64,000 nt of DNA from assembly GCA_032718475.1 (NCBI GenBank), contig JAUCBJ010008050.1:100045-164044 (forward strand), in the 5' to 3' direction. The notes under the pieces were generated by a model that saw only the letters and a list, made by a program, of their open reading frames with translations, ran no database searches and was not told the DNA's origin. Origin of the DNA: Nemertoderma westbladi (lineage: Eukaryota; Animalia; Xenacoelomorpha). The position numbers and the translations under genes were made by a program. Below, in pieces: positions 29,322-62,091 of the stretch. Position 1 is the stretch's first letter. The number at the start of each line of letters is the position of its first letter.

Positions 29322-29335
29322 GTCACCATGGCAAC
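29322..29335 (+). promoter_or_regulatory. RFX X-box in a putative internal promoter of the extra ORF
   Basis: GTCACCATGGCAAC ~490 bp upstream of the ORF2 ATG; identical in copy 2 (42317-42330). Confidence 0.6.
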
Positions 29336-29825
29336 AACCACGCTAGAATTAGAAGTGAGTTAAAAGAACAATAGAAGGTATGCCCCATTGAATAGCATAG
29401 GGAATAAATAGCGCACTGCTAGTATCCAAGGTTACATAATAAATACAGTGACATTCTGGAAGGTACTGACTAACGGACAAATGGCCCGAATGTGTGCAGT
29501 TTGTTGCAGTTGTGTTGAATTTGTGCGTTTGTAGGTGAATGTTACTACTAAGGTGTGTTTACAGTAGCGAGTCGCAATTGTGAAAGTAACCCTAACTCTC
29601 CAAGAAGAACCTGCAGTACATCTAAGCCTTTGGGACGGACAGTGAAGTGACTTGTGCCGGTTATCGTTGTCGTTGTGTAGCTACATCGTTGGCGAAAGCA
29701 CAGCGACGACGGTACATCGGCGCTGAGGATCTTACACTGTCCGGGGGCAAAAGAGGGGTAGGCAGCGACGCCCGCTAGCCTAATATATATAAACTCATTA
29801 TAATATTGATAAACTCATAGCAGAT

Positions 29826-34079: not shown

Positions 34080-34157
34080 CTGTTTAGAGTATTTTTATAT
34101 TTTAGAAACTGTGATTTGTTATATTTTATAGACTTAAATCCCATTTTCTGGGAGCGG

Positions 34158-38624: not shown

Positions 38625-38940
38625 ACAAGGTACACAATTCTATGCCACCATCCCATTTCCAAGACCTAACATAACCCTGCAATCTGCCTCCTGCAGTTTG
38701 CTGGGCACTGTTTCCACAGGCAAGATCAACCCACAGTTATAGGCTACCTTAGGATATGGCAGACTGCTGTGAGAATAATAGAGATGCTAGACCGCAAAGA
38801 CATTCCACAGACGCCTGCTCAAGGACACCGAACTTGAGAGCATTCATGAACTAGGAAAGTTTATGGCTGACCATGAGATCTTGGGCGTTATGTTTCTGTG
38901 TCTGCCATGACTGGAAGCCGATCAACATCATCACCAATCT
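38625..38940 (+). mobile_element. Old RTE-like LINE 3' remnant
   Basis: Encodes LQFAGHCFHRQDQP, homologous to LRFAGHCFCHEDQP of the RTE fragment at ~3030; ends in a catcat-like tail. Confidence 0.6.
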
Positions 38941-39072
38941 CCATATAAGGTACCGGAGGGAAAGAAGTAGGTTAAAGTGGCGGACTTTTCTGCCCAAAAC
39001 AAGAAAATAAATTTAGTTTACTGTAAAAAATTTACTGGAAGATCTGTACCTTTTTCCCTTAACTACCATGAC

Positions 39073-40305
39073 TGTTCGCGCTTTTGAAGACCTTTAGCAG
39101 TTTAACCTGCCAAAATTTATATGTCTTTTAGTTAATTAACACACCTTTAGCATACGACAATATTTTATGCTAATACGCAAAACATTAGCCGAAGCCAGCC
39201 CATGCGCGATCATTCACCCGATGGATCTACACCCGGGAGGCTGAATTCGGATGCTTAGATTTTATTATTGCAGTGTAAGGTTGCAGTGTAAACCTATTGT
39301 ATTATTCGATAGATCACTAATATGTAATTTCTGACAGATATTATTAACTTTCGGGAAATATTAACAGTTCCTTTAGGACGTGGCGCTCTATCTATTTAAA
39401 CAGAGCTAGGACTTATACTAAACGCAACGATAAGGCTTATGATTAAAGTATAAGTCGCATTCTTTAGGAAATGCTTTGTTACCAGTCACATCACACTCAC
39501 AATCATGCACACTATTCTGCCGACAGTCAGTATATTTGATCACACATAAAGAGAACAGCAATTGACTCAGGTAGTGTCTACTAAATAACATTAGATTCAA
39601 TACACACCACATTGATATAAATCGCAATTGTTATATATAGCCCGCCTCTCTAACCTGTAGTGTATCAAGAAAATTGGGAATTTTGGGTGATTTATCCGTA
39701 TTCTCCAAAGAGCAATATTTCCATCAACAAATAGATACAATTAATAACTGACGGTAAATAGCAGTACAAACAATATGATTAGTGCAGTTAAATTAAGTGA
39801 GGTAACACCGCCGGTAACAGTTATACTTTCTATAATCTAAGCAGTTTACTAGAGTTCTTCCCAAAAAGCCGGTGTTTCTGGCTTAGACAGCAATAACAAC
39901 AAAGTATCAAGTAAGGCAGTAAGACTGAACACTCTCCTTATGATCGGCTGAAAAGCTACACGTCGACAGGAAAAATCGCTCTGATTGGCTCAAGCCAAAC
40001 AAAGAACCATGCATCCAATGGCTGTTTCCATGTCAGCAACCAGCTGTTAGATGTCGTAATATGAATCATCACGGCTAAGCTGTGAAAGGTAGTTGGTGCA
40101 TTACAGGTTTTTTGCCTTACCATGTCCGCCAAAACACGTATATAGCAGAATGACTTTTATGTCCGTTAAAACACCTGTAACGGTACCTTGCGGGCGAGGG
40201 GAATATATATACAGTTAGAGAACCTTTTTAGAGTATTCCAGCGCCTGGGGGGAAACTGGATTGCGAAGCAAAAGGGGCCAGTTATATCCCACAGAAGCTT
40301 TTACA
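39073..40305 (-). repeat. 3' LTR of copy 2
   Basis: Direct repeat of 50025-51257; TGTAAAAGC...GCGCGAACA on the minus strand. Confidence 0.96.
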
Positions 40306-40383
40306 CCGCTCCCAGAAAATGGGATTTAAGTCTATAAAATATACAAAATCACAGTTTCTCAAATACGAAAATACTCTAAACAG

Positions 40384-41833
40384 TTAGTCTTTCATGCGCG
40401 GACGGCGTTTACGCAGTTTTTTAAAGCTAGCCAGAGTCTTTTTCTCTTTGGGGCGAGCCACTTTACAAGGAGGGCTATAACTCCTGGGTGAAGGGTGCAA
40501 CATGATTGCATCAGAGGGTATAGGATTATGGTCGGTGTATCCGCCAGTCGAAGTGCCGAGTTGATTGACATCAACGTCGGGGGAGAGGGGTCTAACGGCT
40601 TTGAGAGCTCGTTTCAAGACAGCCGCTCTTACGGGTCCTTTACGAGTGGTCTGAATGAGGGCCGTGGGTGGACCATAGGCAGTTAGAAACTTCCTTGGTT
40701 TAATGGTTCTTTCCAACTCGCGTTCGCGGGCTCGGTATTCGTAAGGCCGTCGATATACTTCCTGTAACTCAGGGTGTGAGTTAACAAACAATTCTCCATA
40801 GTCCGGATCCTGACGGATATGATTGATTAAGTTATAGGAATGAAGGTCGCTAGGATTAACACTCCTGAGAAATTTGCGTACGAATTTGGTTGAAATACAT
40901 TCTCCGACGCGCTTCAGTAGCTCGTAACTTGATATGCGTGATTTCTGTTCAACCGAAGCGAATAGATAAGGATGTAACGCATAAACTCCTTCGTAAGCGC
41001 GTCCGGGATAATAGCGATGGCGCGAATCACAATATAAATCAGTGTTCGCTTCCCAAGCTCTAATGTAACGTAGTGTGATCATTTCATCTACGCTTTCCAA
41101 ATCGCGATTAAAAGGGCAATCGAAACTGGCGTGTCCCTTTAGTGGACAGTGGTGACATTGAGTCATAAATTGAGGGCAAACCGCAAAAATATGCAAATTA
41201 TTAAATCTGCAATACGCTCAATAAATTTCCATCGCCGGTTGTTCGTGGAAATAGGAACAGCGGACGTTTGTGTCCATGGGCGTAACATGGTCTCTCGATG
41301 CGCATAACCGACAACGTTGCCGAGAAACATAGTTGGCATGGCGATAATCGTACGCAGTGAGACACTGTGGACCTTGATACCATTCTAGGATGTAATCGTT
41401 GTCGCTGTTCCGAGCGCGATAGGCTGAATCTCCTCAGATTCTAGGCATATTGGTTCGTCTTCCCAGTCTGTTACGAATAGAATTTTCGTGATCTATTCTC
41501 GGTTTATCGTTACGACTCCGCTGGGTATGATATTTAAATAGAACCATTTCCCTTTAGGGTGTCTACATCGTCCGTATCATGTAAATCGATAGGATGGCCG
41601 GTAGTTAAGAAGTCCATATACGTACCATTACGATGCGTATAGCGAGCGGTTAATTTTCGATAGTCCAATTCACGCGTAAGTTGCTCTTGGGACATCGGCG
41701 GTTCGATATAACGACCATCGTCCTCCGTAATAGTCGGATCGGCTTCACCGCGTATCAAGCTATCCACAAACGCTTGTAAAGGTAGAGTATATCGCTCTCT
41801 AATACCAAGGTCATCTTCTATTAATTCCGTCAT
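40384..41833 (-). pseudogene. Deleted, frameshifted copy of accessory ORF2
   Basis: N-terminus MTELIEDDLG.. (41534-41833) and C-terminus ..KKLRKRRPR (40384-41196) match ORF2. At ~41465 ENSIRNRL is joined to EDEPICLE, a ~2.8-kb deletion that removes the exonuclease. Confidence 0.92.
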
Positions 41834-43445
41834 ATCTGCTATCTGAGTTTATTAATATTAGTATGAGTCAATATTTAGGCAAGCGGGCGTCGCTGCCTAC
41901 TAGTCTTTGACCCCGGACAGTGGGTTTCTCAGCGCCGATGTACCGTTGTCGCGGTGTTTGCGCCAACATGTAGCAACAGCACGACAACGATAATCGACAC
42001 AAGTCCCACCACTGTCCGTCCCAAAGGCTTGAATCCACTTGAGGTTATCTCGGTAGAGTTAGGCTACTTTACAATTGCGATTAGCTACTGTAAACACACT
42101 TTAGTAGTATCATTCACCTATAAACTCACAAATTCCATACAATCATTACTTACTGCACACATGCAAGCCATTTTGTCCGTTAGTCATTGTCTTCCAGAAT
42201 GTCACGTTATTACTATGTATCCTTGGATACTAATAGTGCGCTAGGTATACTCTTATGCTACGCAATGGGGCAAGCTTTTATTTGTCCTTTAACTTGTTTC
42301 TAATTCTAGCGTGGGTGTTGCCATGGTGACATTATGGAAAACTAGCGGTAGAATTAGGGTAATTCTCATGCATACAGATCTGGGATGTTATTTAATAGTA
42401 ATTCTTTAATTGTCAATATCCTCTTTATGCATGATTTTATAAATTTTATCGGCTATTGACTATATATTGGAGATTCTCGCACTCTAGTACACTCAATATG
42501 AATCTCCGCTCCCATGATCTATTAATTACTGGAATTTTGGGAATGTTGTAAATTGCACAAAATGACAATTTATGAAATTCATTCGAATATGAATTTAAAT
42601 TTATTCCCGTGAATTTTATTATTTGATGTTAAATTTGACACAATTTGATTCCAGAGCAGGTCTGGGGACATAGGATCCTTAATTCTATGAAATTTGTCTT
42701 TTAAGAGTATCAGTAAGTGCTACGATATCTTAATCGACTAGAATTGTTAACGGATCTGAATTTTACAGATTTTAATAAATATTAAATTAATATTTAAGAT
42801 GGGCACCGATTTATTCCAGAGCTTGTCTGGGGACGTTAACCACTGATTCTAGAATTTGTCTTTCAAGTATATCGGTGGGTGCCGCGATATCTTAATCGAC
42901 TAGAATTACAGATGGTCAAAAGGTTTAACAGATTTATTTGCGTTTTACGCTACTGTTAGAGGGACATCACGCTACTATATGTATTATTTGTTATAAGGTA
43001 GAAGAGCAATATCGCACGAAGCAATGTCAGTGTGAAGAGGCAAGTCGTTTCCAAGGTCTACCCAGAGCTTGGTTTAGCCGAGACACGAGGATCTGAACTT
43101 TGCATTCCTAATACTCTGCCTACCAATAATACTTAAACATAGTAGTGGCTTTATTGTACTTTAATAAGTACGGACATGTCATCTTACTATAGTCTCGCAT
43201 TTATAATATAATACGGACAGTAAGGAAAGAGAAAAGAATTATTTCTCGCCGTCGCACTAGATATATTATGTAATTACGTAATAAACACTAATATATTGCA
43301 CTAATCTACTAAATATTCTAAAATAACATTTTACTAAATAAAATTAAATAAAACGATTATAATAAAATTACATAATAATACATACATAAATATAAAATAA
43401 AAACAAATATAAAACGATATAGTCACACGCCCACTCCACATGCTA

Positions 43446-46400
43446 TCACGTTATGGAGTCCCTAGATATTTGCCGGATTAGGGAAGTAGTCGTAGGAAGA
43501 GTATCTTGCCTTCCATAGTTTTCGGACAGTTTTCGGTCTCTTTCCAGTAAACATAAACGACTAGCTGGGCGATTGAGTTGTTGTGTTACTTTCTCCGCTC
43601 CCTTGGCCTGTCTAATTTCTGCCGTGGTAAGATGAGGAGGCCATTCTTCTTCTTCTTTACTTAAGGAGTCGGATCCACCTAACCAGCCTGGAGTATCTAT
43701 CAGTTCTTGAGGAGTTGCTCCTCTGGAAGCGATGTCGGCTGGATTAATCGTCCCAAGGCAATGTCTCCATTGATCTACATTGGAGTTAATATCGTCATTA
43801 TCTGAGGAGTATGGTGTTCCCTCGGTTGGATCGTCCACATCACTGCTCTCCACTTCCCATTCCTTTACTTGGTATACCTGTTGTTGAGGTAATCTCTCTT
43901 TGAGAGTTCTACGGGAAGGGCCAGTGAAGTACCAACCTACTCTAGTTCTTACCGCATAAGTTTGTAATGGCTGTGGTTGAGCAGGCCGTTTCTCCAATGT
44001 CTCTAGCGCCTCATGCGCGTTTTGGCCGATGAGTATTTGCACTCCAGGATAATCTGTCTGGAATCGAGGTATCTTAAGATGTTGGATGCTCTCATCCTCG
44101 TCCCAATTATAAAGGTCTGCTTGGGTAGTAGCGAAGTTCTTTATAGCCACCATTTTTACTGACCTTATACTTTGTGCTCCTAATTTATCCTGGGGGGTGG
44201 ACAACGCACCTACATAGTAATCTGCCGTTATGGTAGATTTCCAAACCTGTATAATTCCTGACATATTCAATTTAGTCCGGAACTTGGGTTGTCCAGCAAA
44301 GATATCTTCGGCTAGTTCTTGATCGATGAATGTTCCTGTGCTGCCGGAGTCAAGTAGGGCGTTCACTATGTAACTCTTGTTGAGACCATGAACTCGAACT
44401 TGCACTACAGGAAATTCTCTTATTCCTATGTTGGAAGTTGGAACTTTCCAAGATGGTTGTTTGTCAAAAGGAGTTGGAGTAAACTCGTCAGTGTCCTTTT
44501 CATCCGTAAGTGCTCGATACACTGTGGTATTTATTAGATAACAGGATTCGTTGGCATCGGAGAATTCGTCTGTATAGAATCCTTCCCACTCAGAACCTTG
44601 GTCAGTGTCGTTCACATCACTGAATTGGACATGTAGTTCGGGCTCACTTACCTGACTCGGGTTGTCTCGTTCGAACTCACTGTGTAACAAAATGTGATGT
44701 TTCGCGCCACACTTTGCACACTTTGCGTCGGAGTAACAGGTTCGCCGTTGGTGTCCTGATCTGAGGCAATTATAGCATAGCCGCTTATTCCACAGGACTG
44801 TACGTCTTTCTACAGGGGATTTCTTTAGAAATTCAGCACACGCACTCAAACGGTGGGGCCCGTCGCACAGCGCACATTTTGGTTTGATGTTACTCACCTT
44901 ACCTTGGGTAACGTTATGCACTCTCGTTCTTTCTTCGGGCTTTCTTCCGTGAATTCTCTTAGGAGACGTAGGAGGAGTTGTTGTTACCTGTTCTCTCCTG
45001 TCACTGGTTCGAGACTTGTATTTACTTACGTCTTTATAGGTCTTGTTGTCATAGTAAGACTTTGCTGTGTCTTTCCCGCTGTCCTCTTCTTGAGAAGCTT
45101 GGCTCTCGCCGTCGTCAGTGTAACACACTGGTATTATCCTTCTCCTAGAAACGGGTTTCTCACTTACCTTATTTTCCGATGTTTTCTCTCTGGCCTGCTT
45201 GATGAGTTGTAGTTTTACCTCACCATCTAAGAAGGACATGAGATCAGCCATGGTAGGACTTCGTCGTTGTTGTTCATTCATGTACAACACTTTCTTGTCC
45301 CAGCGTGTACATACTCCACCCTTTGGTAAAGTAGAGACTACGGCTCCAATAACCATGGAACTCTGGTATTCATGCGACTTACCTAACCAGTCCAGTTGTC
45401 TACAGATCTCTTGAATTTCATCGGAAAACTCTATAATCCCACTACTAAGGAAGTGTCGGGGGGCTACTAATTTTGCATACAAATACTTAGCTATGTTATC
45501 TTTGTTACCATACCTGATGTTTAATGTATCCCAAACTTGTCTTAATCCATCTGGATGTCCAATAAACTTTAACGCCATTAACTTGGGAGGTCCTTCCAAA
45601 CACTTGATGAGGAATCTAAGTTTCTCTCCGTTAGATAGTACAGAATTCTGTATGCTATCTTTGTAATATTCGTTGAAAGGTAACCATTTCATCTCATCTC
45701 CATTGAATTTGACGATCTCTCCCACTTTGACCGCTTGGCGGGCTTCGGTTCTAGCCATCTGACGCGTAAAGCTTTCTTGGGCCATCGTGTTATTTAATAT
45801 CGAATTATCGGTATATAAATTTCTCGGATCATTATCAGGTCTATAGGGAATATCATTAATAACAGGTCTATAATCACCCTTAATAGGGTTTGCTATAGGG
45901 GTTTCAACTTCACTAGCAGTATAGATGCGTGTAGGCTCCACACCTTGCGCATGTAATACTTCAGACCTAACGGGTTGACACAATGTTACAGGGGGCATTG
46001 GTATGCCTTTTTGTATATTGACTAATTTGTCGCGTTCTAGCGCGATACTTTGCTGCACTTCTTGCAACTCTGCTCTACCTTCCCTCACTGTTCCCTTAAG
46101 TTGGTGGACAGTCTCCTGCATCTGTCCTAGCAGGAGATTCATCCCCCGCCGTCCCTCTTCCACCCACTCAACCGCCGAAGCGGGAGTCGCCAACATAGTA
46201 GCGGGCTGACGCGGGACGACGGGAGACAAATTATTGATTTCTCTCTCTGCTATCTGGACAGGGGTATTTGCATGGACTGTTCCACCGGGTACAGGCAGTG
46301 TAGTGCTATGTAAAGGGAATTTAGAGTTAAGCTCTGGAAGTGTAGGGGTCTCTAGCACAGAAGTGACTTTGGGAACTACAGGCCTAATTATTTCAGGTTC

Positions 46401-47693
46401 ATCGACTATAGTAGGGAGTCTTTTGACCTGGATAAATTGTTCTATGGGTTCTGCACTACCTAAATCTGTGCTAGTTAGCTGTCTTTTAACAGCGGGGGGC
46501 AAATCAGGCAGTTTATGACGGTGAGATGTTTTTCTACGCCTGCTTAGACGAGATCTATTTCCTCCGCCTTCAGGATCGGTGGTCTCGCCTTCCTCCGATG
46601 ATGTGTATCCTTGGCGCTTGGGAGTAGATCGACTCATCATCTGCATTTGATTAGCAGTAAACTGTTTATTTATACTGTCTTGCGTCTCTTGCAGATTTTC
46701 CAACTCCAATTGGATAGTCTGCTCAGAGGCTCTCCGTTCTGCTTCGGCCACTGCCCTTTCCGCCTTTGCTTCTGCCGCCGCTGCCTTTCCTTTTGCTTCT
46801 GCTTCTGCCGCTGCTGCCCTTCCTTTTGCTTCTGCTTCTGCCGCTGCTGCCCTTGCTGCTATTCTTTCTGCTTCTACTTCTGCCATAGCCGCCGCCTTTG
46901 CTGCTTTTCTTTCTGCTTCTGCATCTGCCATAGCCGCCGCCTTTTGTTCCTCTATCCTTCTTTTCTTTATTTGTTCTTCTCGGACTCTAATGAGGCGGAG
47001 TTTTTCATCACATTCAGCTTGGTTTGCAGCTAACATTTCGGCATCGATTGCGTCCAACACAAGCTTGGTTCCTTCACTATTAGGGGAAAGTCCAGACAGC
47101 CGTCTCCTCAACTCTTCGTCTCCTAGGAATCGCTGATAGTCGGACAAATAAATGTCGATAGCGTCTCTAGTTCGCGGCTTCTCTGCTGATGTTAATTCGC
47201 TTTCCACTTCGCTTTCCACCTCGCTTTCCACTTCGCTTTCCACCTCACTTTTCACTTCGCTTTCCACCTCACTTTCCACTTGAGAAGAAGTGGCGTCGGT
47301 TGATTCCCCACAGGCTGGCCGCCCATCATAAACCGTATCCGCCATCTTCGCTCCGCGTTCTGGCGTCCGCTCAACAGTATCCGAACTACTGGAGCTATCG
47401 GACCGCTGAGGACCCGGTTCTTGGCTAGGAGGTTGCTGCTGTTTTATAGCTTCTTCTTGATCCCGCTTGACTTGGGCCCGAGTGCCTATGGCAGACCAAC
47501 GGCGCTTCACTAACTTCGCAAATTGCGAAATCTTTTCTACCAACCTAGGTTCTGTCACAACCACTGCAGGGGTTGCCCTTCTTACAGTATGAGGGGTTTC
47601 AGACCTCGGTCTGGGATTCTCTACACTTTGATCTGAGAAACAGGCTGTTGTTTCTAGGAGACTATCTGACAGAGTTTGCCTTGTGTCAGCCAT
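43446..47693 (-). CDS. gag: Gag-protease ORF of copy 2 (1415 aa) with in-frame loss of RT, most of RNase H and integrase
   Basis: Collinear with copy 1 Gag/PR (capsid, 3 knuckles, ALLDSGS), then jumps SSDNDDIN>DQWRHC and KGAEKV>TQQLNRP, ending at the native pol stop. Confidence 0.92.
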   Translation of the reverse strand: MADTRQTLSDSLLETTACFSDQSVENPRPRSETPHTVRRATPAVVVTEPRLVEKISQFAKLVKRRWSAIGTRAQVKRDQEEAIKQQQPPSQEPGPQRSDSSSSSDTVERTPERGAKMADTVYDGRPACGESTDATSSQVESEVESEVKSEVESEVESEVESEVESELTSAEKPRTRDAIDIYLSDYQRFLGDEELRRRLSGLSPNSEGTKLVLDAIDAEMLAANQAECDEKLRLIRVREEQIKKRRIEEQKAAAMADAEAERKAAKAAAMAEVEAERIAARAAAAEAEAKGRAAAAEAEAKGKAAAAEAKAERAVAEAERRASEQTIQLELENLQETQDSINKQFTANQMQMMSRSTPKRQGYTSSEEGETTDPEGGGNRSRLSRRRKTSHRHKLPDLPPAVKRQLTSTDLGSAEPIEQFIQVKRLPTIVDEPEIIRPVVPKVTSVLETPTLPELNSKFPLHSTTLPVPGGTVHANTPVQIAEREINNLSPVVPRQPATMLATPASAVEWVEEGRRGMNLLLGQMQETVHQLKGTVREGRAELQEVQQSIALERDKLVNIQKGIPMPPVTLCQPVRSEVLHAQGVEPTRIYTASEVETPIANPIKGDYRPVINDIPYRPDNDPRNLYTDNSILNNTMAQESFTRQMARTEARQAVKVGEIVKFNGDEMKWLPFNEYYKDSIQNSVLSNGEKLRFLIKCLEGPPKLMALKFIGHPDGLRQVWDTLNIRYGNKDNIAKYLYAKLVAPRHFLSSGIIEFSDEIQEICRQLDWLGKSHEYQSSMVIGAVVSTLPKGGVCTRWDKKVLYMNEQQRRSPTMADLMSFLDGEVKLQLIKQAREKTSENKVSEKPVSRRRIIPVCYTDDGESQASQEEDSGKDTAKSYYDNKTYKDVSKYKSRTSDRREQVTTTPPTSPKRIHGRKPEERTRVHNVTQGKVSNIKPKCALCDGPHRLSACAEFLKKSPVERRTVLWNKRLCYNCLRSGHQRRTCYSDAKCAKCGAKHHILLHSEFERDNPSQVSEPELHVQFSDVNDTDQGSEWEGFYTDEFSDANESCYLINTTVYRALTDEKDTDEFTPTPFDKQPSWKVPTSNIGIREFPVVQVRVHGLNKSYIVNALLDSGSTGTFIDQELAEDIFAGQPKFRTKLNMSGIIQVWKSTITADYYVGALSTPQDKLGAQSIRSVKMVAIKNFATTQADLYNWDEDESIQHLKIPRFQTDYPGVQILIGQNAHEALETLEKRPAQPQPLQTYAVRTRVGWYFTGPSRRTLKERLPQQQVYQVKEWEVESSDVDDPTEGTPYSSDNDDINSNVDQWRHCLGTINPADIASRGATPQELIDTPGWLGGSDSLSKEEEEWPPHLTTAEIRQAKGAEKVTQQLNRPASRLCLLERDRKLSENYGRQDTLPTTTSLIRQISRDSIT

Positions 47694-50024
47694 GTTTGAT
47701 TGTACAGTCGAATGCTTACTGCTATATTACAGTTAAAGCAAGTCTAGTAATTCAGTATCACTGTTAGCCTAATAATTAATTACCGATACTGCTACTCAGT
47801 GTAGCGTGATATATATATAATATATTAGAATACCGGTATGCTTATAATATATATATAAGTATTATTACAGACTAGATTTGTCACAGAGTACCGGTGTATA
47901 AATTTAGCACAAATATATATATAAATATATAATAGGCCTATCGTGGATACCGGTATACAGCTTACACTTATAATATATATAAAGTATAACTATGAACTAA
48001 AATTAATTACAGAATACCGGTATGATTTCAGCTCAAATTTATAGAAATAAATATAATAAGCCTATGGTAAATACAGGTATGTCAATTATTTTAGAATAAT
48101 TGAATTTCTGAATATTTAGGGTTACTTGGTTACTTTAACTTACTTTGTTACCGTTATTTAAGCAGTAGTCCAACTGATATTGAGACCTAGTTGTTGTATG
48201 GCAGGCCTACTATTTATAAATCGTTTGAGTTGATTTATAATATTTATATACCCGTTTAAAAGGGTTTTGTCAATATTTGAAATAAATGTTATTATTTCTG
48301 TGGGAGTCACTACACAGAAGGTGAACGCCTCTAAGTGAAGTGCTATTTATTTGACACTAAAACTGATAATTCTAATTTACCTAAGTTACTTAATACTACA
48401 AATTACTTACGATACGGGTGAGATTAATTCTCTAATTAAACACAACAAAATATTACGTACGAAATTTTTTAGGGTAATTTTACAGGAAGTCTACAAACCA
48501 GCCTAACAAAGGGTTAGAATTCTGGTTATTATCAACGGACAGGGTACTACGGTATTTAAATAATAAGTAGTAGTAAATATATCGTGCTGTCCAGATAGGA
48601 AAATACCACCGCCTGACGACCTATAACCGTATCGCTATAGGTACTACGTTATGTATCACGGATTGTTCCTACCCAGAAGCTAATAGAGCTAACGAATGTG
48701 CCTATCAACCACTTTACAACACAAATATACTGCCTACACTAATTACTTCGGAAAGCACTGTACACTAAACCCTAAATTAGGTACAAGTACCGGTATAACA
48801 AATAATCAGTAGTTAAATATACTTGAACAGTTAAAAGAACCACGGCATCTGCTGGAGTGACCGAAGCACAAAGTCGTCAGTCTTTACCCACGCCAAGCAA
48901 CCCGTGTAGTACCGGAGTTAATTTAACTATAACGGTATGTGTAACAAACACAATTACTGTAGGAATAAACTTGGGGACATGAATGTTGCGAATAATCGCA
49001 TAAACTCTGAATAATAAATATTACGCTACCCGTACAGAATACTCAAACAAATACAAACCAAACGCTGGCAGACTACTACCAAGCCTAAACAAACTACTGT
49101 ATGTGCAGATTCTGAAACTGTTAGTTAGTATGCGTTCTAACACGGTAGTACGACTTACTCTTTAAGAGGGGATTGACCTTACCGCTTATGGCTGCCCCAA
49201 CTTACTAACGGCACTTGATCAGACCAACTCTACACACGCAGCAATCCCTTCAGACCTAAAAATAGCTAGACAACAATCCAGCCTACAAAATATCTGAGTA
49301 ATAACTATTACGGTATCTGAACAGACCACACAAACAAACTCAGGCTAAAACACTGGCAGACTACGATCAAGCCTAGATAAACTACAGTATATGCAGACTC
49401 TGAAACTGTTAGTTAGTATGCGTTCTAACACGGTAGTACGACTTATTCTTTAAGAGGGGATTGACCTTCAGCATATGGCTGCCCCAACTTACTAACGGCA
49501 CTTTATCAGACCAACTCTACACACACCGCAATCTCTCCAAACTCAACAACAGTCAGACAGCAGCTCAGCCTACAATTATCTGAACAATCTGAGCAGGGTC
49601 ACACGCCTTCTGCTCAATATTAGCCTACTAGTAAATAAAACCGACAGAAATAAGTAGAATCTCAAATAAAAATCAGGGCGGCCGTCCCTGATTAAGTACT
49701 AAGACCTACCAGTATACAATAATCAAAATCGAATAATACTAAATGTACTTGTACAGCAGTACCGGTACCGGTGATGACAGTTAGGCCTACTGACCTACAA
49801 AGTACCGGTTCAGTTTTACCGGTCACTACGGTATTTTGCAACCTTATTGCCTACTGCAATAAGATTTTAAACTGTTACGGTTCGACAGAACAGTATTAAA
49901 CTGTATTTAATGCCTACACTTGCAACCTTATTGCCTACTGCAATAAGATTATAACTGTTACTGTTCGCCAGAACAGTATTAAACTGTATTTAATACCTAC
50001 ACTGCAATACAAGTTAACTGTTAC

Positions 50025-51257
50025 TGTTCGCGCTTTTGAAGACCTTTAGCAGTTTAACCTGCCAAAATTTATATGTCTTTTAGTTAATTAACACACCTTT
50101 AGCATACGACAATATTTTATGCTAATACGCAAAACATTAGCCGAAGCCAGCCCATGCGCGATCATTCACCCGATGGATCTACACCCGGGAGGCTGAATTC
50201 GGATGCTTAGATTTTATTATTGCAGTGTAAGGTTGCAGTGTAAACCTATTGTATTATTCGATAGATCACTAATATGTAATTTCTGACAGATATTATTAAC
50301 TTTCGGGAAATATTAACAGTTCCTTTAGGACGTGGCGCTCTATCTATTTAAACAGAGCTAGGACTTATACTAAACGCAACGATAAGGCTTATGATTAAAG
50401 TATAAGTCGCATTCTTTAGGAAATGCTTTGTTACCAGTCACATCACACTCACAATCATGCACACTATTCTGCCGACAGTCAGTATATTTGATCACACATA
50501 AAGAGAGCAGTAATTGACTCACGTAGTGTCTACTAAATAACATTAGATTCAATACACACCACATTGATATAAATCGCAATTGTTATATATAGCCCGCCTC
50601 TCTAACCTGTAGTGTATCAAGAAAATTGGGAATTTGGGGTGATTTATCCGTATTCTCCAAAGAGCAATATTTCCATCAACAAATAGATACAATTAATAAC
50701 TGACGGTAAATAGCAGTACAAACAATATGATTAGTGCAGTTAAATTAAGTGAGGTAACACCGCCGGTAACAGTTATACTTTCTATAATCTAAGCAGTTTA
50801 CTAGAGTTCTTACCAAAAAGCCGGTGTTTCTGGCTTAGACAGCAATAACAACAAAGTATCAAGTAAGGCAGTAAGACTGAACACTCTCCTTATGATCGGC
50901 TGAAAAGCTACACGTCGACAGGAAAAATCGCTCTGATTGGCTCAAGCCAAACAAAGAACCATACATCCAATGGCTGTTTCCATGTCAGCAACCAGCTGTT
51001 AGATGTCGTAATATGAATCATCACGGCTAAGCTGTGAAAGGTAGTTGGTGCATTACAAGTTTTTTGCCTTACCATGTCCGCCAAAACACGTATATAGCAG
51101 AATGATTTTTATGTCCGTTAAAACACCTGTAAAGGTACCTTGCGGGCGAGGGGAATATATATACAGTTAGAGAACCTTTTTAGAGTATTCCAGCGCCTGG
51201 GGGGAAACTGGATTGCGAAGCAAAAGGGGCCAGTTATATCCCACAGAAGCTTTTACA
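50025..51257 (-). repeat. 5' LTR of copy 2
   Basis: Direct repeat of 39073-40305. Confidence 0.96.
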
Positions 51258-51369
51258 ATGACCATCTAAGAGATGATTTTATGTTATTTTATTTCAACTA
51301 ATTTTTAACATTCCAGGTATCATACCACGTTCCCCCGTTCCAACTGATACATCTAACGTTCCATCTACA

Positions 51370-54300
51370 ATGACAACTGTAGGGGAATTGGCACAATCGC
51401 TATGGGAAGAGAGTCCACACACTAAGGTCTTCACAGCAAATCATGACAAAATAGAGGATTTCGCAAATAAATGTCTCGTTTTAGTGTCATTAGTGGCACT
51501 TGCAGGTAAATTGTTTGCATCAGAGGCCATGCAATGTGTACCTTCAGGTGAACACTTAGAAGATATAATCAACATTGAAATGAGTGATGCTATATTGGAT
51601 TACGCTAAGGACAAATGCGGAAATGTGCTATGGAATTTTGTTACACAATATCTTCCTTACATAATGATAATAGAGTCTCTTTTCCTACTTATAGTAGACA
51701 AATTTAGTTTGAAAACGTCATCTATTCGAAATACACTGGAATTATTTTACAACTTGGTTGTAGAACCATCGCTAAACTGTACTGATGCCGATTCAACTAG
51801 GAGAATCAATTCAATGGAAGAAGGTATGGCAGGAGATATATTAGTAAAGGAAAGACAATGCAAAGAAATGAGTGAGTCTTTAAAGAGAAGCAGTAAAATA
51901 TATCGAGCTTATGTTTGGAAAAGTGTATTTGAAATCATTTTTGGATTATTTATCTTTGGATTCAATATATGGATTGCTGCCGATCAAACTGCTATTCAAA
52001 ATGGTGCTCTGTGCTCCATACCATTGAACCAATTTGCTTCGACACCAAGTGCAACCAACCTAGAATTTGTATGCTCCTGCACACAAATGAATATTTACCA
52101 CTACATAAGTATAATATTGTGCGTTATCCTTGTGGTTCACATCCTTTGTAATTTGTACGCTATATTCTGGTGTTTTTCTTTACACCTTAGACCTTTTTCT
52201 CATCAATTGGCTACATACAAAAAAAATGGGATAACTTGCAGTGATAATTGGTCCATATTAACCCTTTCTAAAGCTCGTTCATATTTGCACAAAAGCTTGT
52301 TACAAATTCCTGTACGCTGCACAACAAGTTACAATAATTCTGAAAATGGGGATGTTACCAGTGGCCAAGATATACTATTTCTGCTAGACTTAGTTGCTCA
52401 CTCTTGTAAAGTTTCAGCTTCATTGAAGATTTTCACACTTCTTAATGATGAGTTCCAAGATCTATGGACTCCACAGAAAGTTACATTTTTAACAGAAGAA
52501 ATGACAGAAGAAAAAATAATTGTTAAATGGGAGCGAGCTATAATACATAATTCCACAAACATAACGTCAGCAAATCTTACAGCATACGAAGTGAGCTTAA
52601 CTCCCTCTGATAGCCACAACTCATTTCTTAGAATAGATGCAAATGGTCCTTACTTAGCATGTTTTGAAAGCTTAGAACCGGGTAAAGAGTATACAATCTC
52701 TGTGTCTTCCATCCTCAATGGAACATCAATGGCTTGTGCTTCACATTCTGAACATACATATGCAAACCAACCAATTAATATGAAAGCAGAAACAATTGGA
52801 TCAAACTTTATTGATTTGAGTTGGTGTTCTCCAAATAGAGGCGAATTTACAGATTATTTGTTAGAATATTCAAAGCAAGAAGATAGTCACCCCAGCCATT
52901 TAAATCAAATTCAAAGAAATACTCAGCAGCCTATTACAACTCATAAGTATGTCTCAGAGTCAGCGCTAATTGGTAGCAGGATAAAAAGAACAATTGATAT
53001 TTCAATTGAATTAGAAGGAAGTCATCAACTTCATCAACAAACATCAATAAATCTCGAACCTGTTGAAAATAAAGTAGTACTGAATAAAGGGCAAACATCC
53101 TACAAAGTTCAAAACCTTGCCCCAAAACGAAAATATAAATTCAAATTGACAGCTCGGAGTGGTAAAAATCTCACAATAAAGCCCAATTCTGAAGCGCTTA
53201 AAGGTACATTTATGACCAAGCGTCTTCCACCACCTGAAAATATAAGAATTCGTGATCATGATGTTACAACAATTGATGTTCAGTGGGATTTATCATCATC
53301 AGTTACTCATTATTATGTGTATCACACTCTAGCTAAATCACTTTCATATGAGATAATTAGTCGAACAATCTCCCCTAATCTGGATATATGTTTAATGCAT
53401 TGCCAATTCGCAGGTGAAGTAGATGTTAGTAAACCCACAACTGATAATTTCGATATGATATATAAAGTAGGAAGAGATGGCGACCTGGAAGAGGGGCAAT
53501 GGTATGCTATCTTCGTTGTTGCTGTGAATGGAAACGTTCAGTCTGACCCTACAATGGCCATTCATTGGACTCGGCCCGCAAAACCTACAAAATTTAGAGA
53601 ACAAATTTTGAATGATGGAGTTTCATTACTATGGAAGAAATCAACCTCGATGTTAACTAGGGGATATATTTTGAAATGTAAACCAGTAAATAAAGGTTTT
53701 AAGGGACATTTACCTACAACTGTTCTTGGTGACATTGGTAATGTTGACCATTATAAAATATATGGTTTACAGGGTGGATGCTCATACACATTTACCTTGG
53801 AGGCTCAGGCATACATTGATGACATTAAAGATGCTACTACTAGTATCCCAATAAATTTGAGCCATACCGTTAAACCAAAACCTGTAATTAAACCAAAACA
53901 TAATTCTGCCGCTGATAATATATCAGTTACTTGGGATATTCCAGAAGATACACTTATTTCTCAATTCGGTCTGCAAATTGAGGAGTTGAGAGAGAATGGC
54001 CCTGCTAAATCCCTGTGTGAACTGGATTTTCCATCAAGTAGTCATAAATTTCCCCAACTGAAGCAAGGCATGAAATATCAAATAAATATCTGGACACAGA
54101 CTGAAATTGAGAATGAAGAGAAGGAAAATAACAATCAGCCTGTCAAGAGCCCAATTGAGATAATAAAGTGCTTTACATGTCCCAGCCAGCCAGAGCAATT
54201 ATTGACAGAATCAATAAACTCACAAAATGTTAAACTTGTATGGGACAAATCTATATCATATGAAGAGGTTCACTACTTTATCATCTACACTGAGAATGAA

Positions 54301-57300
54301 ACTGGTACCAAATTTCCACCAGTGGAATGTCTTGGAAAAAATTCGTTGTTTCTTTCAAGCCTGTGGCCTGGCTATCAATATGAAGCAATTGTTTATTCAC
54401 AAATTGTAAGTGATGCTACATATAAAAGTGAAGATTCAAATACAGTTGTATTTTCTACTCTACCAGAAACTCCCCTTGGATTGGGGTCAGATGGAGATAA
54501 TATTTCGACTTCACAACATAGCATTTCATGGTCAGACCATGTTTCTGAGAAGTTTTTATGTTCAAAACAACTTTGTTATTTGCAAAGAATTGATGAAAAG
54601 AACCACAGGGACCCAGTATCAATACCTCGTAATGAAAATTGTGTAACTCTTGATGTAGAACCTGGATATGAGTATATGGTTTGGTGTAAACGTGTTGTTG
54701 AACATGATGGTCTGCCAGAAGTTTACAGTGGTGCATCGCCTGTTCACCAGTTTTCGGTTTATCCAGAGGCCCCAAAAAATATCGAAATACTACAAGACTC
54801 CATTACAGCTAGATCAGGTACAGCTTCGTGGTATTGGGCTGAACACCTAGGTAGTTACATCAGTTTTAAACTAACACTAAAGAAAAAGAATCGCCCAGAA
54901 GATATTCCTTTGGAAATAGATTGTGTAGATTGTTGGTGTAATTTAACAAATCTGCAACCTGGAACTGGTTACATCGTATCAGTAACAACAGTAGGACCTG
55001 CTGACAAATGTAGTCAAGAATCAAAAGTATGTATATTCTCTACAAAGCCTGAGGCACCAGTAGCTCTTGAAATTTTCCAAAAGGAAAATGGAGATATATG
55101 TGTGAGTTGGAAGGAATTGGATTGGGAGCCATATAAACTATTTATTGAGTATATACACTATGATGACTATATAATGCTAGGACTTATTCCAGTATGTAAT
55201 GAAGAAAAAAAGTGGCAAATTATGCCCGATAATTGTAAAATATTTAATACTAATAATCATGCAAGTGGCTTAGAAAAATGTTTAGAGATAGGCGAGGTAT
55301 ACGATGTAAGAGTATGTTGTGAGGCTCTTCAGAATGGTACCACAGATTCTTTATCGAATGCTACAGCCTGTTCTATTCCAAAAAAATATAAATGCCCACC
55401 TCCACCTCCATTTGACATTGAAGTATCTGAAGATAATAGTAATATTCGTGTATCATGGTCTTTCAGCTCTAAAATAACTACATTTAAGTTAAATTGTCAT
55501 GAACTGTTGATGGATGTTTCAAAAGTTATTGTCATTGATGAAGATATTAGAGAATGCACATATGTATATCACAGTAAACCCTCAACATGCTATCGTGTTA
55601 CTGTAGCATCCTATGTTGAAGATAAAGAATTTGATAATGCTATCATAACAAGTCAAGGTATAGAACATGTATTTATGTCTTCCCCATTGTTTGTTAAAGA
55701 TTTAATAGTTATTTCTAAAAAGGGAATATCTGAAGCCAATTTAAAGTGGGTCACCCCAGATTGTGAAATTTCATACTACAATATTTATCATGGTTCTAAG
55801 GGAAAAAATTTCCAAATTATCCGTGACGGGTCAAGGTTGTCCAGTGATGCTACAACATTTACTTACAGAGATGCCCCATGTGGAACTATATCAATATATA
55901 GGGTTGAAACGGTATATAGGACTAATGGATTAGAAAAGAGTAAGTATTGTGACATCGAGTTTATTGAGGAACCACCAGTTCCCAAAGAACTGCGGCTTAG
56001 TTTAATTCCATCCAATGTAATTAAGTTAGAATGGCAGAAACCAGATGATGTTAAGAAATCCTACTATTCCAACTTCAATGTCTATGTTTGCAAGCTTCTT
56101 GAAGAACAATATCAAACTCCTATCAAACAAGAACCAACTCGTCAACCGGAAAAGTCGGAAACTAAATGCGAAATAAGCATATCTCAATTTGACCCTGGTT
56201 ACTGTTACAAAGTTGGTATTTCATGTTTGGCAAGGTATGCAGAGAATTACATGAAAGAAGGACAGCTGGTTACTAATATTATTACAATTCCACCTGCCCC
56301 CCTTGATAATGTAGTTGATTGTGACCGTAATCCGAACTCTTGTAACATTCTTTGGGAATATGGTAATGGGTATTATAAAGAGGTTAATATAGAAATTGCT
56401 GGGCAGGAAAAAAATATACACATTACATTCCCTTCTAGGTCATATTCATTAGTAAACCTTCAACCAGGTACTAAATATACAGTTAAATTAATTCCTGTTG
56501 GAGAAAAAGAGGTAAAGGGCTCAACTGTAACGTATAAGTTTATAACAAAGCCCAGTCAACCGGAATGTTTTAAAATTGTTGAAGAAGATGGGAACGTTTT
56601 TGCAAAATGGGAAAAATCGACATGGGTTGTTGTTGAATACAAACTGCAGTACCGTTCACAGGGTGCCTTAGACTGGATAGATATCCCTGTAAGAATTGCA
56701 TCTAATAAATGTAAAACCACACATCTTAATGAATACTTTGATGACTATGACACTGAATATGAGGCACAACTTGGTTATAGTAATGGAAATGAAATTGCAT
56801 ATGCAATCGATGATCTATTTGTCAGAGAAGTACCATGTCCATACGATATAATTGTAAATGAACACAACAATCATGATGGTGAACAAATGGCAACAATTTT
56901 ATGTCAAACCAAGTGCAGATCTCAATTATCAGTAAATATTACCAATAGAGCTGAAGTCAAGTTTCTCACTAACAATACCGAAGTAAAAAATGTAGTTAAC
57001 ATTGCAAGTGACCAAATCTCGTTTATAACTGAACCATCACATATATACGATATAAATATACGTGCATACAACAAAGTTATTGATAAGTTCAGCAAGAACA
57101 CTTTCCATCAATTTCTTTCCAAACCACTAAAACCGTCTGGATTAAATATGCAGGATCTGTCTCAAGATAAATTACTCCTAAGTTGGGTTAAACCGGATTG
57201 CGAAGTTAGTTATTATAAAATTGCTCAGTCCAAATCTCCTTTTAAGAATCCAAATTTTGATAAAACTTCGACAGATACGTCTTTAGAGATCCCGATTGAT

Positions 57301-58305
57301 TTCGAGGTGGAAATGATGCGTTTCTATGTAAAATCCCTAATGACCTCCTCCTTGCAATGTGTTCCTGAATCTGAGAGTGATCCCGCAGTAATTAATGTTG
57401 TGCAATATCCCGATCCACCCCAAAACCTGCAATGCACAGTATTAAATTCTACAGATATAGAATTGTCATGGGAACCAGCAGAGAATTCTAATGAATTTGA
57501 GTTGATAGTCAAGGACATCACAACATGTAAATCTATAACTAAAACTTTACAGCAACAGGAGTTGAATCATACTCTCACTGATAATATTCCAGGTGCAGAA
57601 TACAGTATATCAACCAAATCAATACCGCACTTTACATCTAATGATGATTGTCACTGGATAAAAAATAACAAAAGAGACCTCAAAAAAGTAACTATGCCAC
57701 CTGAACCTCCTGTTTCTTTACGTTTTGAAGCTGGTGTAACATCTGTCGAAGTTTGGATAGAAGGGCCTACAACAAGATTCACAGGGTATGAGATCCAATT
57801 AATTTACAACGATTTAAAACGTGATAAAAATGTGTTCAAAAAGAGGTACAATCGTACAATCGAAAATAAATATACTATTGATAATCTGGAGCCATCAACA
57901 TCATATTGTTTGAGATGTTACACAACGTCTAATGAAAAAATAAGTGACAATTATGCAGAAAATGAAATAGAAACTCTTAGTAAGTCAGTAACCATTGAAT
58001 ACTTTTGGAATTCACCCAGAGAAATTTCTCTATCTGCAAACTATGTTGATAAACCGAAGGAAGTAAAAGTGTCATTCTTTAATGACAATGGTAAACCTGC
58101 GAATATCGAAGAAACAGCGTTAAAATTATCATGGTATTCAAAGAAAGCATCATCCGACTCTATTATTATAAATAACTTTCTCCCAAAGTTTGTTGCAAAA
58201 ATTGATGCTAAAGCAAATGCTGAATCAATAATTCGAACAGATGTAGTGGAAATATTGAGGAATCTTCACTTAAATAAGAAAAATCCCCAAACCATAATTA
58301 AATAG
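51370..58305 (+). CDS. LRRC8/pannexin-like 4-TM channel domain fused to ~19-20 fibronectin type III repeats (2311 aa, single coding exon)
   Basis: N-terminal ~370 aa parallels LRRC8: MTTVGEL (MIPVTEL), TM1 then QCVP, DKC...FVTQYLPYIMIIESLFL (FAKYFPYLVL), IYRAYVWK, DILFLLDLV (DFAFMLHLI), LWTPQKV (EWTLDKL). Four hydrophobic helices with paired loop cysteines. Then repeated P.N.....I.V.W......Y......L.PG..Y.V.V units. Acceptor ttccag at 51311-51316. Confidence 0.88.
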   Translation: MTTVGELAQSLWEESPHTKVFTANHDKIEDFANKCLVLVSLVALAGKLFASEAMQCVPSGEHLEDIINIEMSDAILDYAKDKCGNVLWNFVTQYLPYIMIIESLFLLIVDKFSLKTSSIRNTLELFYNLVVEPSLNCTDADSTRRINSMEEGMAGDILVKERQCKEMSESLKRSSKIYRAYVWKSVFEIIFGLFIFGFNIWIAADQTAIQNGALCSIPLNQFASTPSATNLEFVCSCTQMNIYHYISIILCVILVVHILCNLYAIFWCFSLHLRPFSHQLATYKKNGITCSDNWSILTLSKARSYLHKSLLQIPVRCTTSYNNSENGDVTSGQDILFLLDLVAHSCKVSASLKIFTLLNDEFQDLWTPQKVTFLTEEMTEEKIIVKWERAIIHNSTNITSANLTAYEVSLTPSDSHNSFLRIDANGPYLACFESLEPGKEYTISVSSILNGTSMACASHSEHTYANQPINMKAETIGSNFIDLSWCSPNRGEFTDYLLEYSKQEDSHPSHLNQIQRNTQQPITTHKYVSESALIGSRIKRTIDISIELEGSHQLHQQTSINLEPVENKVVLNKGQTSYKVQNLAPKRKYKFKLTARSGKNLTIKPNSEALKGTFMTKRLPPPENIRIRDHDVTTIDVQWDLSSSVTHYYVYHTLAKSLSYEIISRTISPNLDICLMHCQFAGEVDVSKPTTDNFDMIYKVGRDGDLEEGQWYAIFVVAVNGNVQSDPTMAIHWTRPAKPTKFREQILNDGVSLLWKKSTSMLTRGYILKCKPVNKGFKGHLPTTVLGDIGNVDHYKIYGLQGGCSYTFTLEAQAYIDDIKDATTSIPINLSHTVKPKPVIKPKHNSAADNISVTWDIPEDTLISQFGLQIEELRENGPAKSLCELDFPSSSHKFPQLKQGMKYQINIWTQTEIENEEKENNNQPVKSPIEIIKCFTCPSQPEQLLTESINSQNVKLVWDKSISYEEVHYFIIYTENETGTKFPPVECLGKNSLFLSSLWPGYQYEAIVYSQIVSDATYKSEDSNTVVFSTLPETPLGLGSDGDNISTSQHSISWSDHVSEKFLCSKQLCYLQRIDEKNHRDPVSIPRNENCVTLDVEPGYEYMVWCKRVVEHDGLPEVYSGASPVHQFSVYPEAPKNIEILQDSITARSGTASWYWAEHLGSYISFKLTLKKKNRPEDIPLEIDCVDCWCNLTNLQPGTGYIVSVTTVGPADKCSQESKVCIFSTKPEAPVALEIFQKENGDICVSWKELDWEPYKLFIEYIHYDDYIMLGLIPVCNEEKKWQIMPDNCKIFNTNNHASGLEKCLEIGEVYDVRVCCEALQNGTTDSLSNATACSIPKKYKCPPPPPFDIEVSEDNSNIRVSWSFSSKITTFKLNCHELLMDVSKVIVIDEDIRECTYVYHSKPSTCYRVTVASYVEDKEFDNAIITSQGIEHVFMSSPLFVKDLIVISKKGISEANLKWVTPDCEISYYNIYHGSKGKNFQIIRDGSRLSSDATTFTYRDAPCGTISIYRVETVYRTNGLEKSKYCDIEFIEEPPVPKELRLSLIPSNVIKLEWQKPDDVKKSYYSNFNVYVCKLLEEQYQTPIKQEPTRQPEKSETKCEISISQFDPGYCYKVGISCLARYAENYMKEGQLVTNIITIPPAPLDNVVDCDRNPNSCNILWEYGNGYYKEVNIEIAGQEKNIHITFPSRSYSLVNLQPGTKYTVKLIPVGEKEVKGSTVTYKFITKPSQPECFKIVEEDGNVFAKWEKSTWVVVEYKLQYRSQGALDWIDIPVRIASNKCKTTHLNEYFDDYDTEYEAQLGYSNGNEIAYAIDDLFVREVPCPYDIIVNEHNNHDGEQMATILCQTKCRSQLSVNITNRAEVKFLTNNTEVKNVVNIASDQISFITEPSHIYDINIRAYNKVIDKFSKNTFHQFLSKPLKPSGLNMQDLSQDKLLLSWVKPDCEVSYYKIAQSKSPFKNPNFDKTSTDTSLEIPIDFEVEMMRFYVKSLMTSSLQCVPESESDPAVINVVQYPDPPQNLQCTVLNSTDIELSWEPAENSNEFELIVKDITTCKSITKTLQQQELNHTLTDNIPGAEYSISTKSIPHFTSNDDCHWIKNNKRDLKKVTMPPEPPVSLRFEAGVTSVEVWIEGPTTRFTGYEIQLIYNDLKRDKNVFKKRYNRTIENKYTIDNLEPSTSYCLRCYTTSNEKISDNYAENEIETLSKSVTIEYFWNSPREISLSANYVDKPKEVKVSFFNDNGKPANIEETALKLSWYSKKASSDSIIINNFLPKFVAKIDAKANAESIIRTDVVEILRNLHLNKKNPQTIIK

Positions 58306-60637: not shown

Positions 60638-62091
60638 CAAACGTTACGCGATACAGAGCTAGTAATTAAACTGAGTTGTTAAAAGTTGTTGGTTATAATT
60701 TAACAACCTGTTTGTGATGCTGTGGTTATATTACCTGTCGTAATTTTATGAATAATAAAAAAGTCATTATAATATTTTGATAAATTATTTATTACCGGCG
60801 GTAAAGGGGCATTATGAAATATTTTTCTCAAAATTGAGAATTCTTAAGAACATTTTATTGAGCATTTGAGCAACAAAGCTACAATAATAATATTGACGGA
60901 TCAGCATGCCTCTCACCCATTTTTAAGAATACAGTCTTATTTTTTCACTTTTCCGTCAAATTTAATCTAAATTTTATATATTTTTTAAACTGACTCTAAT
61001 AACTTCACTATATTAATTTAATATGAAATGGAATTTATAGAATAAGCAGATATAAACATCAATTATTAATAAAAAATTATATTTTAAATCATATTTTTTG
61101 TATAGACAATAATTCGTTTGTTGTTTTGGTTAGATTCACCAAATCCGAAACCAGAATTTTAGTAAAAATCTAGTATTCCCATTGACCATAGCTAACTTCA
61201 ACACTCAAGATACCATCACATAGTTGATTGGTTGGTCTGATTTTGAAGGTTAATACCATACTTAGTGCTGTTCCTGTTGGATACAGATGGGTGATTGATT
61301 CTGCTATATCCACATAAGCTTAAGGTGCACACCCCACCCCCATACTGATGCAGATTATCCAGACATACCATTAAGTCATAAGCCATATGAAGTACCCTTA
61401 GAAATACTGCTATTATATTAACCTAATTATTATATATAATATATTTATTATTATTATTCATCACATATATATATATACTTATTTATGATTATTTTTATCT
61501 AAATAATTAATAATTTATAAATTAATTATTAATTATTAATTTTTTAATGATGTATATATTTTTTACATGGAAACAAAAAAACTTCGCAAAGTCAACTAAA
61601 TACATCAAGGCTATTAATTAATCAAAGAGACCCTTTTTCACGGGGTCATAAGGGAGAATCATTTTGTTTCTCATACATGTATAATAAATAAATAATACTT
61701 CCGGTAGATAGTTAAAAGTAATTTTTTCTTTAATGTCCAACGTATTCTTCCCATGTAATACGGAAGTTAATTTTTTTATATACTAATTCATATATATATT
61801 ATTAATTTAAAAAATTAATTTTTTTGCTTTATTGTTTTATTATTATTAATTTAAAAATATCGATAGAAATACTTTTTAACAATAAAATCAGCATTATAAA
61901 ATTTATATCTCACTAAACTAATGAAATAATGTAATTCAAGGTAGCGAAGGTATTTATAACGAATTTTTAGTGATATAATTTATTTTTAAGATAGAATATT
62001 TAAGTTAAAGGGTAATTGCTAAAGAAGGAAAGTTGTGAAAATATTATGAAATCAATAATTTGTTGATATTGTTCGTAAACTAACATACGAT

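Follow-up and report, generated by a model that had tools for sequence, protein, structure and literature searches.

The 64,000-nucleotide stretch of Nemertoderma westbladi DNA analysed here (the window; contig JAUCBJ010008050.1, positions 100,045 to 164,044 of the forward strand) carries a long gene that is predicted to encode a channel-type membrane protein. Its N-terminal pore domain resembles that of the LRRC8 proteins, and it is followed by a long chain of fibronectin type III (FN3) domains in the place where LRRC8 proteins carry their leucine-rich repeats (LRR). The gene lies at 51370-58305 on the plus strand and consists of a single frame, from the ATG at 51370 to the stop at 58305, which encodes 2311 amino acids (aa) with no internal stop, as opposed to 162 and 263 stops in the other two forward frames across the same interval. 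The GC content at third codon positions (GC3) remains within 0.24-0.31 along the gene (0.27 overall), the window contains no N, and the start methionine aligns with the N-termini of the copepod relatives described below. An assembly chimera or a fusion of two genes is rejected on account of the one frame, the lack of N, the narrow range of GC3 and a junction between the two parts of the protein that is colinear with relatives.

The putative pore domain comprises aa 1-366. A hydropathy scan detects four segments of membrane length, listed as transmembrane helices (TM) 1 to 4 in the table below, and beyond aa 273 there is no 19-residue window with a mean of 1.3 or higher. The Pfam family Pannexin_like (PF12534) matches aa 1-370 with 33.9 bits at a cut-off of 25 and the whole 2311-aa protein with 24.5 bits, and Innexin (PF00876) gives no match on aa 1-370 at E values up to 1. 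The best match of aa 1-370 among solved chains is LRRC8C (E 8e-5). A family profile built from the query and 29 of its 58 relatives retrieves LRRC8C with E 3e-29, LRRC8A with 1.5e-27, LRRC8D with 4e-20 and pannexins with 3e-6 or worse, and no innexin is found among the 57 matches listed. Feature-based neighbours in the Atlas carry PF00876, which is a lead only, and an Atlas search with aa 1-733 gave no usable match. For aa 1-463, an AlphaFold2 model made from 51 sequences contains the four long helices (predicted local distance difference test score, pLDDT, 85.7; predicted template modelling score, pTM, 0.83), and all of the matches listed for it by Foldseek are LRRC8. In a VIA-align comparison of the model with 48161 chains, the top match is LRRC8A with Z 18.3 and a root-mean-square deviation (rmsd) of 4.0 over 282 aligned residues, joining positions 15-365 of the model to 15-401 of the chain, followed by PANX2 (Z 14.4), PANX1 (13.3), connexin-50 (13.1) and INX-6 (11.6; rmsd 5.5, 290 aligned). 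Profile and predicted fold agree in placing aa 1-366 closer to LRRC8 than to pannexins or innexins, which bears out the LRRC8-like four-TM domain seen by an initial annotation of this DNA.

The protein shares with the subunits of the volume-regulated anion channel (VRAC), LRRC8A-E (PDB 8dr8, 7xzh, 9ezc; PF12534), the N-terminal helix, the four-TM pore, the Cys-tied outer loops, the post-TM4 helices and the presence of a large repeat domain from the equivalent point onwards. Its loop cysteines Cys56, Cys83, Cys215 and Cys235 fall in the loop-cysteine columns of LRRC8C and are also kept in 14 of the 15 relatives having both loops. Pannexins 1-3 (PDB 6vd7, 8gyq) belong to the same fold family (Z 13-14) and likewise have two cysteines per outer loop, but their profile match is far weaker, and they are not known to carry a folded repeat tail. 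INX-6 (PDB 5h1q) represents the innexins of the same fold family, which are absent from the 57 profile matches listed and, up to E 1, from the Pfam matches of aa 1-370. The outer filter position of the query has no Arg, being occupied by Ile75 when anchored on the conserved Tyr, or by Asp73 when counted from the Cys; the corresponding residue is Arg103 in LRRC8A and Leu105 in LRRC8C, as given in the excerpt of PMC12182595. With Ile75 the filter would be uncharged, as in LRRC8C and LRRC8E, so that strong anion selectivity is not predicted from this ring. Judged by its domain content the protein is not a member of LRRC8 itself, because Pfam finds no LRR family in the 2311 aa, nor is it an innexin or pannexin of PF00876.

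In LRRC8 both termini are cytosolic and the post-TM4 helices connect TM4 to the LRRs (PMC12182595, in excerpt). This topology, combined with the lack of any later TM segment, predicts that the FN3 tail is cytosolic, as the initial annotation had proposed from an even number of TM segments. An odd count that would leave the tail outside the cell is rejected on the basis of the four-helix hydropathy profile, the model and the structural match to LRRC8A. On the model, FN3 starts directly where the LRRs of LRRC8 would start: the structural alignment to LRRC8A ends at aa 365, and aa 366-463 align to an FN3 domain of fibronectin (Z 12.1, rmsd 2.1, 86 aligned). The same switch had been read from the motif LWTPQKV, set against EWTLDKL in LRRC8. 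The boundary stands, but the Trp of this motif is not conserved in the family; the next Pro is conserved and opens FN3 unit 1.

Pfam fn3 matches the whole protein with E 1e-68 in nine passing stretches. With unit borders set by anchoring on the Trp of strand B, which is missing from unit 15, there are 18 FN3 units between aa 366 and 2211, and FN3 makes up 84% of the chain. The array reported earlier is confirmed, and its count of about 20 is lowered to 18 units followed by 100 aa of doubtful nature. In a leave-one-out profile test with 200 shuffles per unit, 16 of the 18 units score above every shuffle (unit 4 narrowly), unit 9 is reached by one and unit 15 by 17 of the 200 shuffles, and the C-terminal 100-aa piece is reached by six. 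These last 100 residues have no fn3 or other meaningful Pfam match and no anchoring motif or domain was identified in them; a single-sequence fold of aa 1918-2311 (pLDDT 37) places low-confidence strands and an end helix in this piece. The units share a mean pairwise identity of 15% (best 23%), and the array is therefore old. When the tail is compared with solved structures, it matches fibronectin (E 2.5e-11) and tenascin-R (1.6e-10), then receptor phosphatases (2e-4 to 8e-3) and titin (0.007), and these values give no support to the titin-type FN3 that had been assumed. That the ectodomain of a receptor phosphatase was grafted on as a whole is disfavoured, because the phosphatase matches are weak and units 1 and 2 are specific to the family. 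The tail contains no RGD and is not enriched in N-glycosylation sequons (17, compared with 18.9 in shuffles).

A duplication within the tail first came to light in an alignment of overlapping tail pieces. When units 9-13 are set against units 14-18, none of the 120 orders of units tried aligns as well as the native one, unit 11 matches unit 16 with z = 11, and a lag of five units is the best lag (permutation p = 0.013). Tested the same way, units 4-8 show no block match to units 9-13 or 14-18, and BLASTP of the 2311-aa protein against itself finds no internal repeat. The order of the units indicates that the long tail grew partly by duplication of a five-unit block.

A full HMMER scan with the pore domain retrieved 58 relatives, many of them fragments, with a best E of 4e-26 and identities of 21-38%. 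Pannexin_like is present in 40 of these, fn3 in 16 and both in 12 (E up to 0.01), and no LRR family occurs among the families listed for them. The organism look-up covered 30 of the 58 clusters, and organism names come from four, all of which are copepods: Tigriopus californicus, Caligus rogercresseyi and, twice, Eurytemora carolleeae. Three of these proteins are of a five-FN3 type (Eurytemora LOC111706757, XP_023335453.1; Caligus QQP57419.1; Tigriopus TCALIF_00641-PA), and Eurytemora also has a one-FN3 type (LOC111709704). Their annotations read uncharacterised, 'fibronectin type-III domain-containing' or 'similar to COL7A1', and their identity to the query is only about 22-30%. Full-length members of the five-FN3 type are 786-929 aa long with approximately five FN3 domains. 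BLASTP aligns the query with the Caligus protein (P0071) in one colinear piece across aa 1-620 (E 2e-43, 24% identity), and since the record of this protein derives from a Trinity-assembled transcript, pore and FN3 lie on a single mRNA in at least this relative. In a sister group (P0024, P0029, P0034, P0037, P0038, P0043 and P0051) the pore is followed by about one FN3, with a second possible in P0034 and P0051.

The copepod proteins thus have the same pore-then-FN3 order as the query, with about five or one FN3 domains as opposed to 18, and the first two units correspond by position, including the long insertion of unit 2. A profile of the relatives' first FN3 scores 38 bits on unit 1 and at most 5 on other units, that of the second FN3 scores 45 bits on unit 2 and at most 19 elsewhere, and profiles of the third to fifth FN3 single out no unit of the query clearly. 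In the query itself, a single chain unites the pore domain, the helix with the motif D.LFL.DL.AH and the first FN3 that is specific to the family. Scanning metagenomes with a closer alignment yielded 441 pattern matches, from which 22 additional loci of this type emerged; their longest open frames over the match are 851-891 codons. The gene is one long open frame in loci L001, L002 and L004 and lies in several pieces in L011-L013, L017 and L018; some of the unbroken loci may be transcript assemblies. Taken together, these sequences indicate that the combination of pore and FN3 is the design of a multi-member family and not a one-off, a point that had escaped the initial annotation.

Two quick, unrooted trees were made, one of 37 rows and one of 24 rows after removal of three long branches and gappy rows. 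Both place the query between the one-FN3 and five-FN3 groups, at the end of a long branch of 1.35-1.48 changes per column, which points to a separate lineage. Support for its position outside the five-FN3 group is 96-99 by the Shimodaira-Hasegawa-like approximate likelihood ratio test (SH-aLRT), to be read with the quick unrooted trees and the long branch in mind, and FN3 unit 2 is nonetheless common to both. No close orthologue of the query was found, and there is no paralog of the channel gene within the window. Standard Pfam scans detect the combined architecture in public copepod proteins. It is described in no title or abstract of the literature searched, most subscription journals being outside its coverage, and the copepod accessions are absent from the main texts searched, supplements lying outside that search. 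The architecture, which the initial annotation did not recognise as described, appears to be present in databases but undescribed.

Immediately upstream of the gene lies a young BEL/Pao-type long terminal repeat (LTR) element of 12 kb, which the initial annotation had missed and whose two LTR copies show 9 differences in 1235 bases. It is oriented away from the gene and ends 113 bases before the ATG and 59 bases before a candidate splice acceptor; this acceptor, located 53 bases 5' of the ATG, implies an upstream 5' exon, which on these signals probably exists. By eye, GC-richer stretches at 37900-38160 and 38700-38960, to the left of the insertion, are candidates for the 5' exon or promoter. 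The element has kept a 1426-codon gag-type open reading frame (ORF), and much of the internal region present in a neighbouring element is gone.

Table 1. Features of the channel gene and of the LTR element upstream of it (positions within the window)
Feature	Position	Strand	Basis or remark
Single ORF, 2311 aa	51370..58305	+	start Met aligned with N-termini of copepod relatives
Candidate 3' splice site (CTAAT, pyrimidine tract, CAG)	51298..51316	+	sequence; predicted
LRRC8-type pore domain, aa 1-366: N-terminal helix, TM1-4, two outer loops, inner loop, post-TM4 helices	51370..52467	+	profile, hydropathy, AlphaFold2
TM1, aa ~30-53	51457..51528	+	hydropathy, AlphaFold2 model
TM2, aa ~90-114, YLPY motif aligned to YFPY of LRRC8C	51637..51711	+	alignment, hydropathy, model
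TM3, aa ~180-209	51907..51996	+	hydropathy, AlphaFold2 model
TM4, aa ~240-269	52087..52176	+	hydropathy, AlphaFold2 model
Post-TM4 helices, aa 333-366, equivalent of LRRC8 IL2, family motif D.LFL.DL.AH	52366..52467	+	model, alignment
FN3 unit 1, aa 366-463, family-wide, at the LRR start position of LRRC8	52465..52758	+	VIA-align; profile of relatives' first FN3
FN3 unit 2, aa 464-617, W..P.GEFT.Y motif and long internal insertion, both in copepod second FN3	52759..53220	+	profile, BLASTP
FN3 units 3-8, aa 618-1225, divergent	53221..55044	+	Pfam, Trp anchoring, shuffle test
FN3 units 9-13, aa 1226-1725, five-unit block, copy one	55045..56544	+	block-order test
FN3 units 14-18, aa 1726-2211, five-unit block, copy two	56545..58002	+	block-order test
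C-terminal 100 aa, possibly a degenerate 19th beta-sandwich and end helix	58003..58305	+	low-confidence model, pLDDT ~50 at best
Young BEL/Pao-type LTR element, just upstream of the gene	39073..51257	-	LTRs 39073-40305 and 50025-51257
Target-site duplication ATGAC of this element	39068-39072 and 51258-51262		5 bases

Elsewhere in the window, a second and longer BEL/Pao-type element of the same family (16687-35350, plus strand) has LTR copies that are 98% identical, matches to gag, protease, Peptidase_A17 and integrase, and a poly-G run after it, with no clear target-site copy. Between its integrase and 3' LTR lies an extra ORF of 1417 aa (29826-34079, plus strand) with Cys/His knuckle-like motifs and no Pfam match. 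Its middle stretch looked by eye like a DEDD 3'-5' exonuclease, and a search of this stretch against solved structures gave nothing. Downstream of the channel gene, a frame of at least 647 codons (62059-64000, plus strand) with an EF-hand pair runs past the end of the window and has a GC3 of 0.42, as compared with 0.27 in the channel gene. On the minus strand, 76-1827 holds pieces of a reverse-transcriptase ORF, with RVT_1 on 653-1321. The palindromes TACCGGTA and TAGGCCTA occur in the non-coding DNA of the window at about 15-fold over Markov expectation, TACCGGTA has 0 occurrences in the 22 related loci, and the two palindromes may be a signature of the host lineage.

At the level of the family, the presence of an LRRC8-type pore with FN3 in place of LRR is solid. 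For the query, the reading considered somewhat likelier to be right than wrong is that of one subunit in a large-pore channel with six or seven members, where the FN3 tail, predicted to be cytosolic, would stand in by analogy for the LRR domain of LRRC8 in regulation and scaffolding. Assembly into a ring, conduction and gating would follow from homology, with cytosolic termini, ring assembly and the passage of ions and small molecules carried over from what is established for LRRC8 and pannexins. Units 1 and 2, which are conserved in the family, would sit right beneath the pore and act on the gate in the manner of the LRRs, and the distal units, whose number varies (none, about 3 or about 16) and which are approximately 15% identical, may act as a lineage-specific spacer and binding scaffold. 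In LRRC8, movement of the LRRs accompanies gating, and C-terminal tags or LRR-binding nanobodies alter activity (PMC12182595, in excerpt).

Several observations weigh against a functional channel with a cytosolic FN3 tail. The pore domain shares only about 12-15% identity with LRRC8 in the structural alignment, and the KPWWD that precedes TM1 in LRRC8C, mostly kept as PWWD in one-FN3 relatives with an intact N-terminus, reads TANHD here with the Asp alone kept. The FN3 units are nearer to extracellular fibronectin and tenascin than to any cytosolic FN3; fibronectin, which is also the best match for the fold of unit 1, and tenascin are secreted proteins, whereas the tail is predicted to be cytosolic and lacks RGD. 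The long tail has no counterpart in an insensitive word-indexed search with aa 1-370: of the 1242 candidates with lengths of 1271-4045 aa, none matched. The same type of search returned nothing among proteins of 30-1270 aa (0 of 4307) or, with the family alignment and again insensitively, among those of 1011-2885 aa (0 of 3953), and these blanks are weak because the search missed the 58 relatives found by the full HMMER scan. Lastly, the position of a young 12-kb element 59 bases 5' of the candidate acceptor could mean that this allele is poorly expressed. Whether the frame is intact merely because a silencing insertion is so recent is connected to this, and the small number of LTR differences and the proximity of the element to the ATG fit such a reading. 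It is highly improbable nonetheless, given that the insertion lies upstream of both the candidate branch point and the acceptor, which appear undamaged, and that the element is oriented away from the gene, and silencing would leave the nature of the protein unchanged.

The initial annotation had put forward, as one candidate, a tethered mechano- or volume-sensing channel; in this reading the far end of the FN3 chain is held by the cytoskeleton and the chain pulls the pore open upon stretch or swelling. The tail does occupy the place of the mobile, gating-linked LRR domain of LRRC8, and 18 tandem FN3 domains, each about 3.5-4 nm in length, would span tens of nanometres; the five-unit block duplication has a parallel in the super-repeats of titin. 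The relatives with one or about five FN3 domains show, however, that the tail varies in length within the family. The units look like those of fibronectin and match titin with just E 0.007, nothing in the C-terminus could be identified as an anchoring domain, and no other protein was found to carry so long an array, so that this proposal fares poorly and is regarded as quite unlikely. A wider proposal, of an unrecognised invertebrate LRRC8-type branch whose pore is a modular chassis bearing 1-18 FN3 in place of LRRs, with a tether-gated mechanism in which the array is a sensor that relays tension, or the binding of a ligand, to the gate over tens of nanometres of cytosol, is tentative and on balance improbable. 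An immune or danger pore, in which fast-diverging FN3 units bind cytosolic pathogen or damage ligands and the pore releases ATP or cyclic dinucleotides or kills the cell, would be in keeping with the great divergence of the units, the several paralog groups of the family and the conduction of cGAMP by LRRC8 channels in immune cells (PMC12182595, in excerpt), but with no paralog in the window and no immune domain by Pfam it is given a slim chance.

Two further readings concern the pore itself. In one, the pore domain serves only to oligomerise and to hold an FN3 scaffold in the cytosol, such as one at junctional plaques or muscle attachments; in its favour, the chain is largely FN3, and the pore domain lies on a long branch and has lost motifs that its relatives keep. 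This non-conducting membrane anchor is very doubtful, since the N-terminal helix, the two Cys-tied outer loops and the post-TM4 helices have all been retained, as in a complete large-pore subunit. There is little to recommend a cell-to-cell junction subunit, with two rings docking across cells as in innexins. Docking of pannexins is blocked by loop glycans, and both outer loops of the query lack N-glycosylation sequons; according to the excerpt of PMC6391747, cells of some animal groups are electrically coupled although connexins and innexins are missing. However, at least one sequon is present in 13 of the 15 relatives with both loops, and the pore is nearer to LRRC8 than to INX-6.

How VRAC senses swelling is an open question for which the LRR domain is the prime suspect. 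A natural family that joins an LRRC8-type pore to FN3 shows that this pore lineage is not tied to LRRs, and its members amount to natural domain swaps between FN3 and LRR modules. LRRC8 is itself thought to stem from a fusion of a pannexin with LRRs (PMC12182595, in excerpt). The five-FN3 versions of copepods are short enough for cloning, and the animals that carry them are studied for their salinity tolerance, so that the family also provides candidates for invertebrate osmolyte or ATP-release channels.

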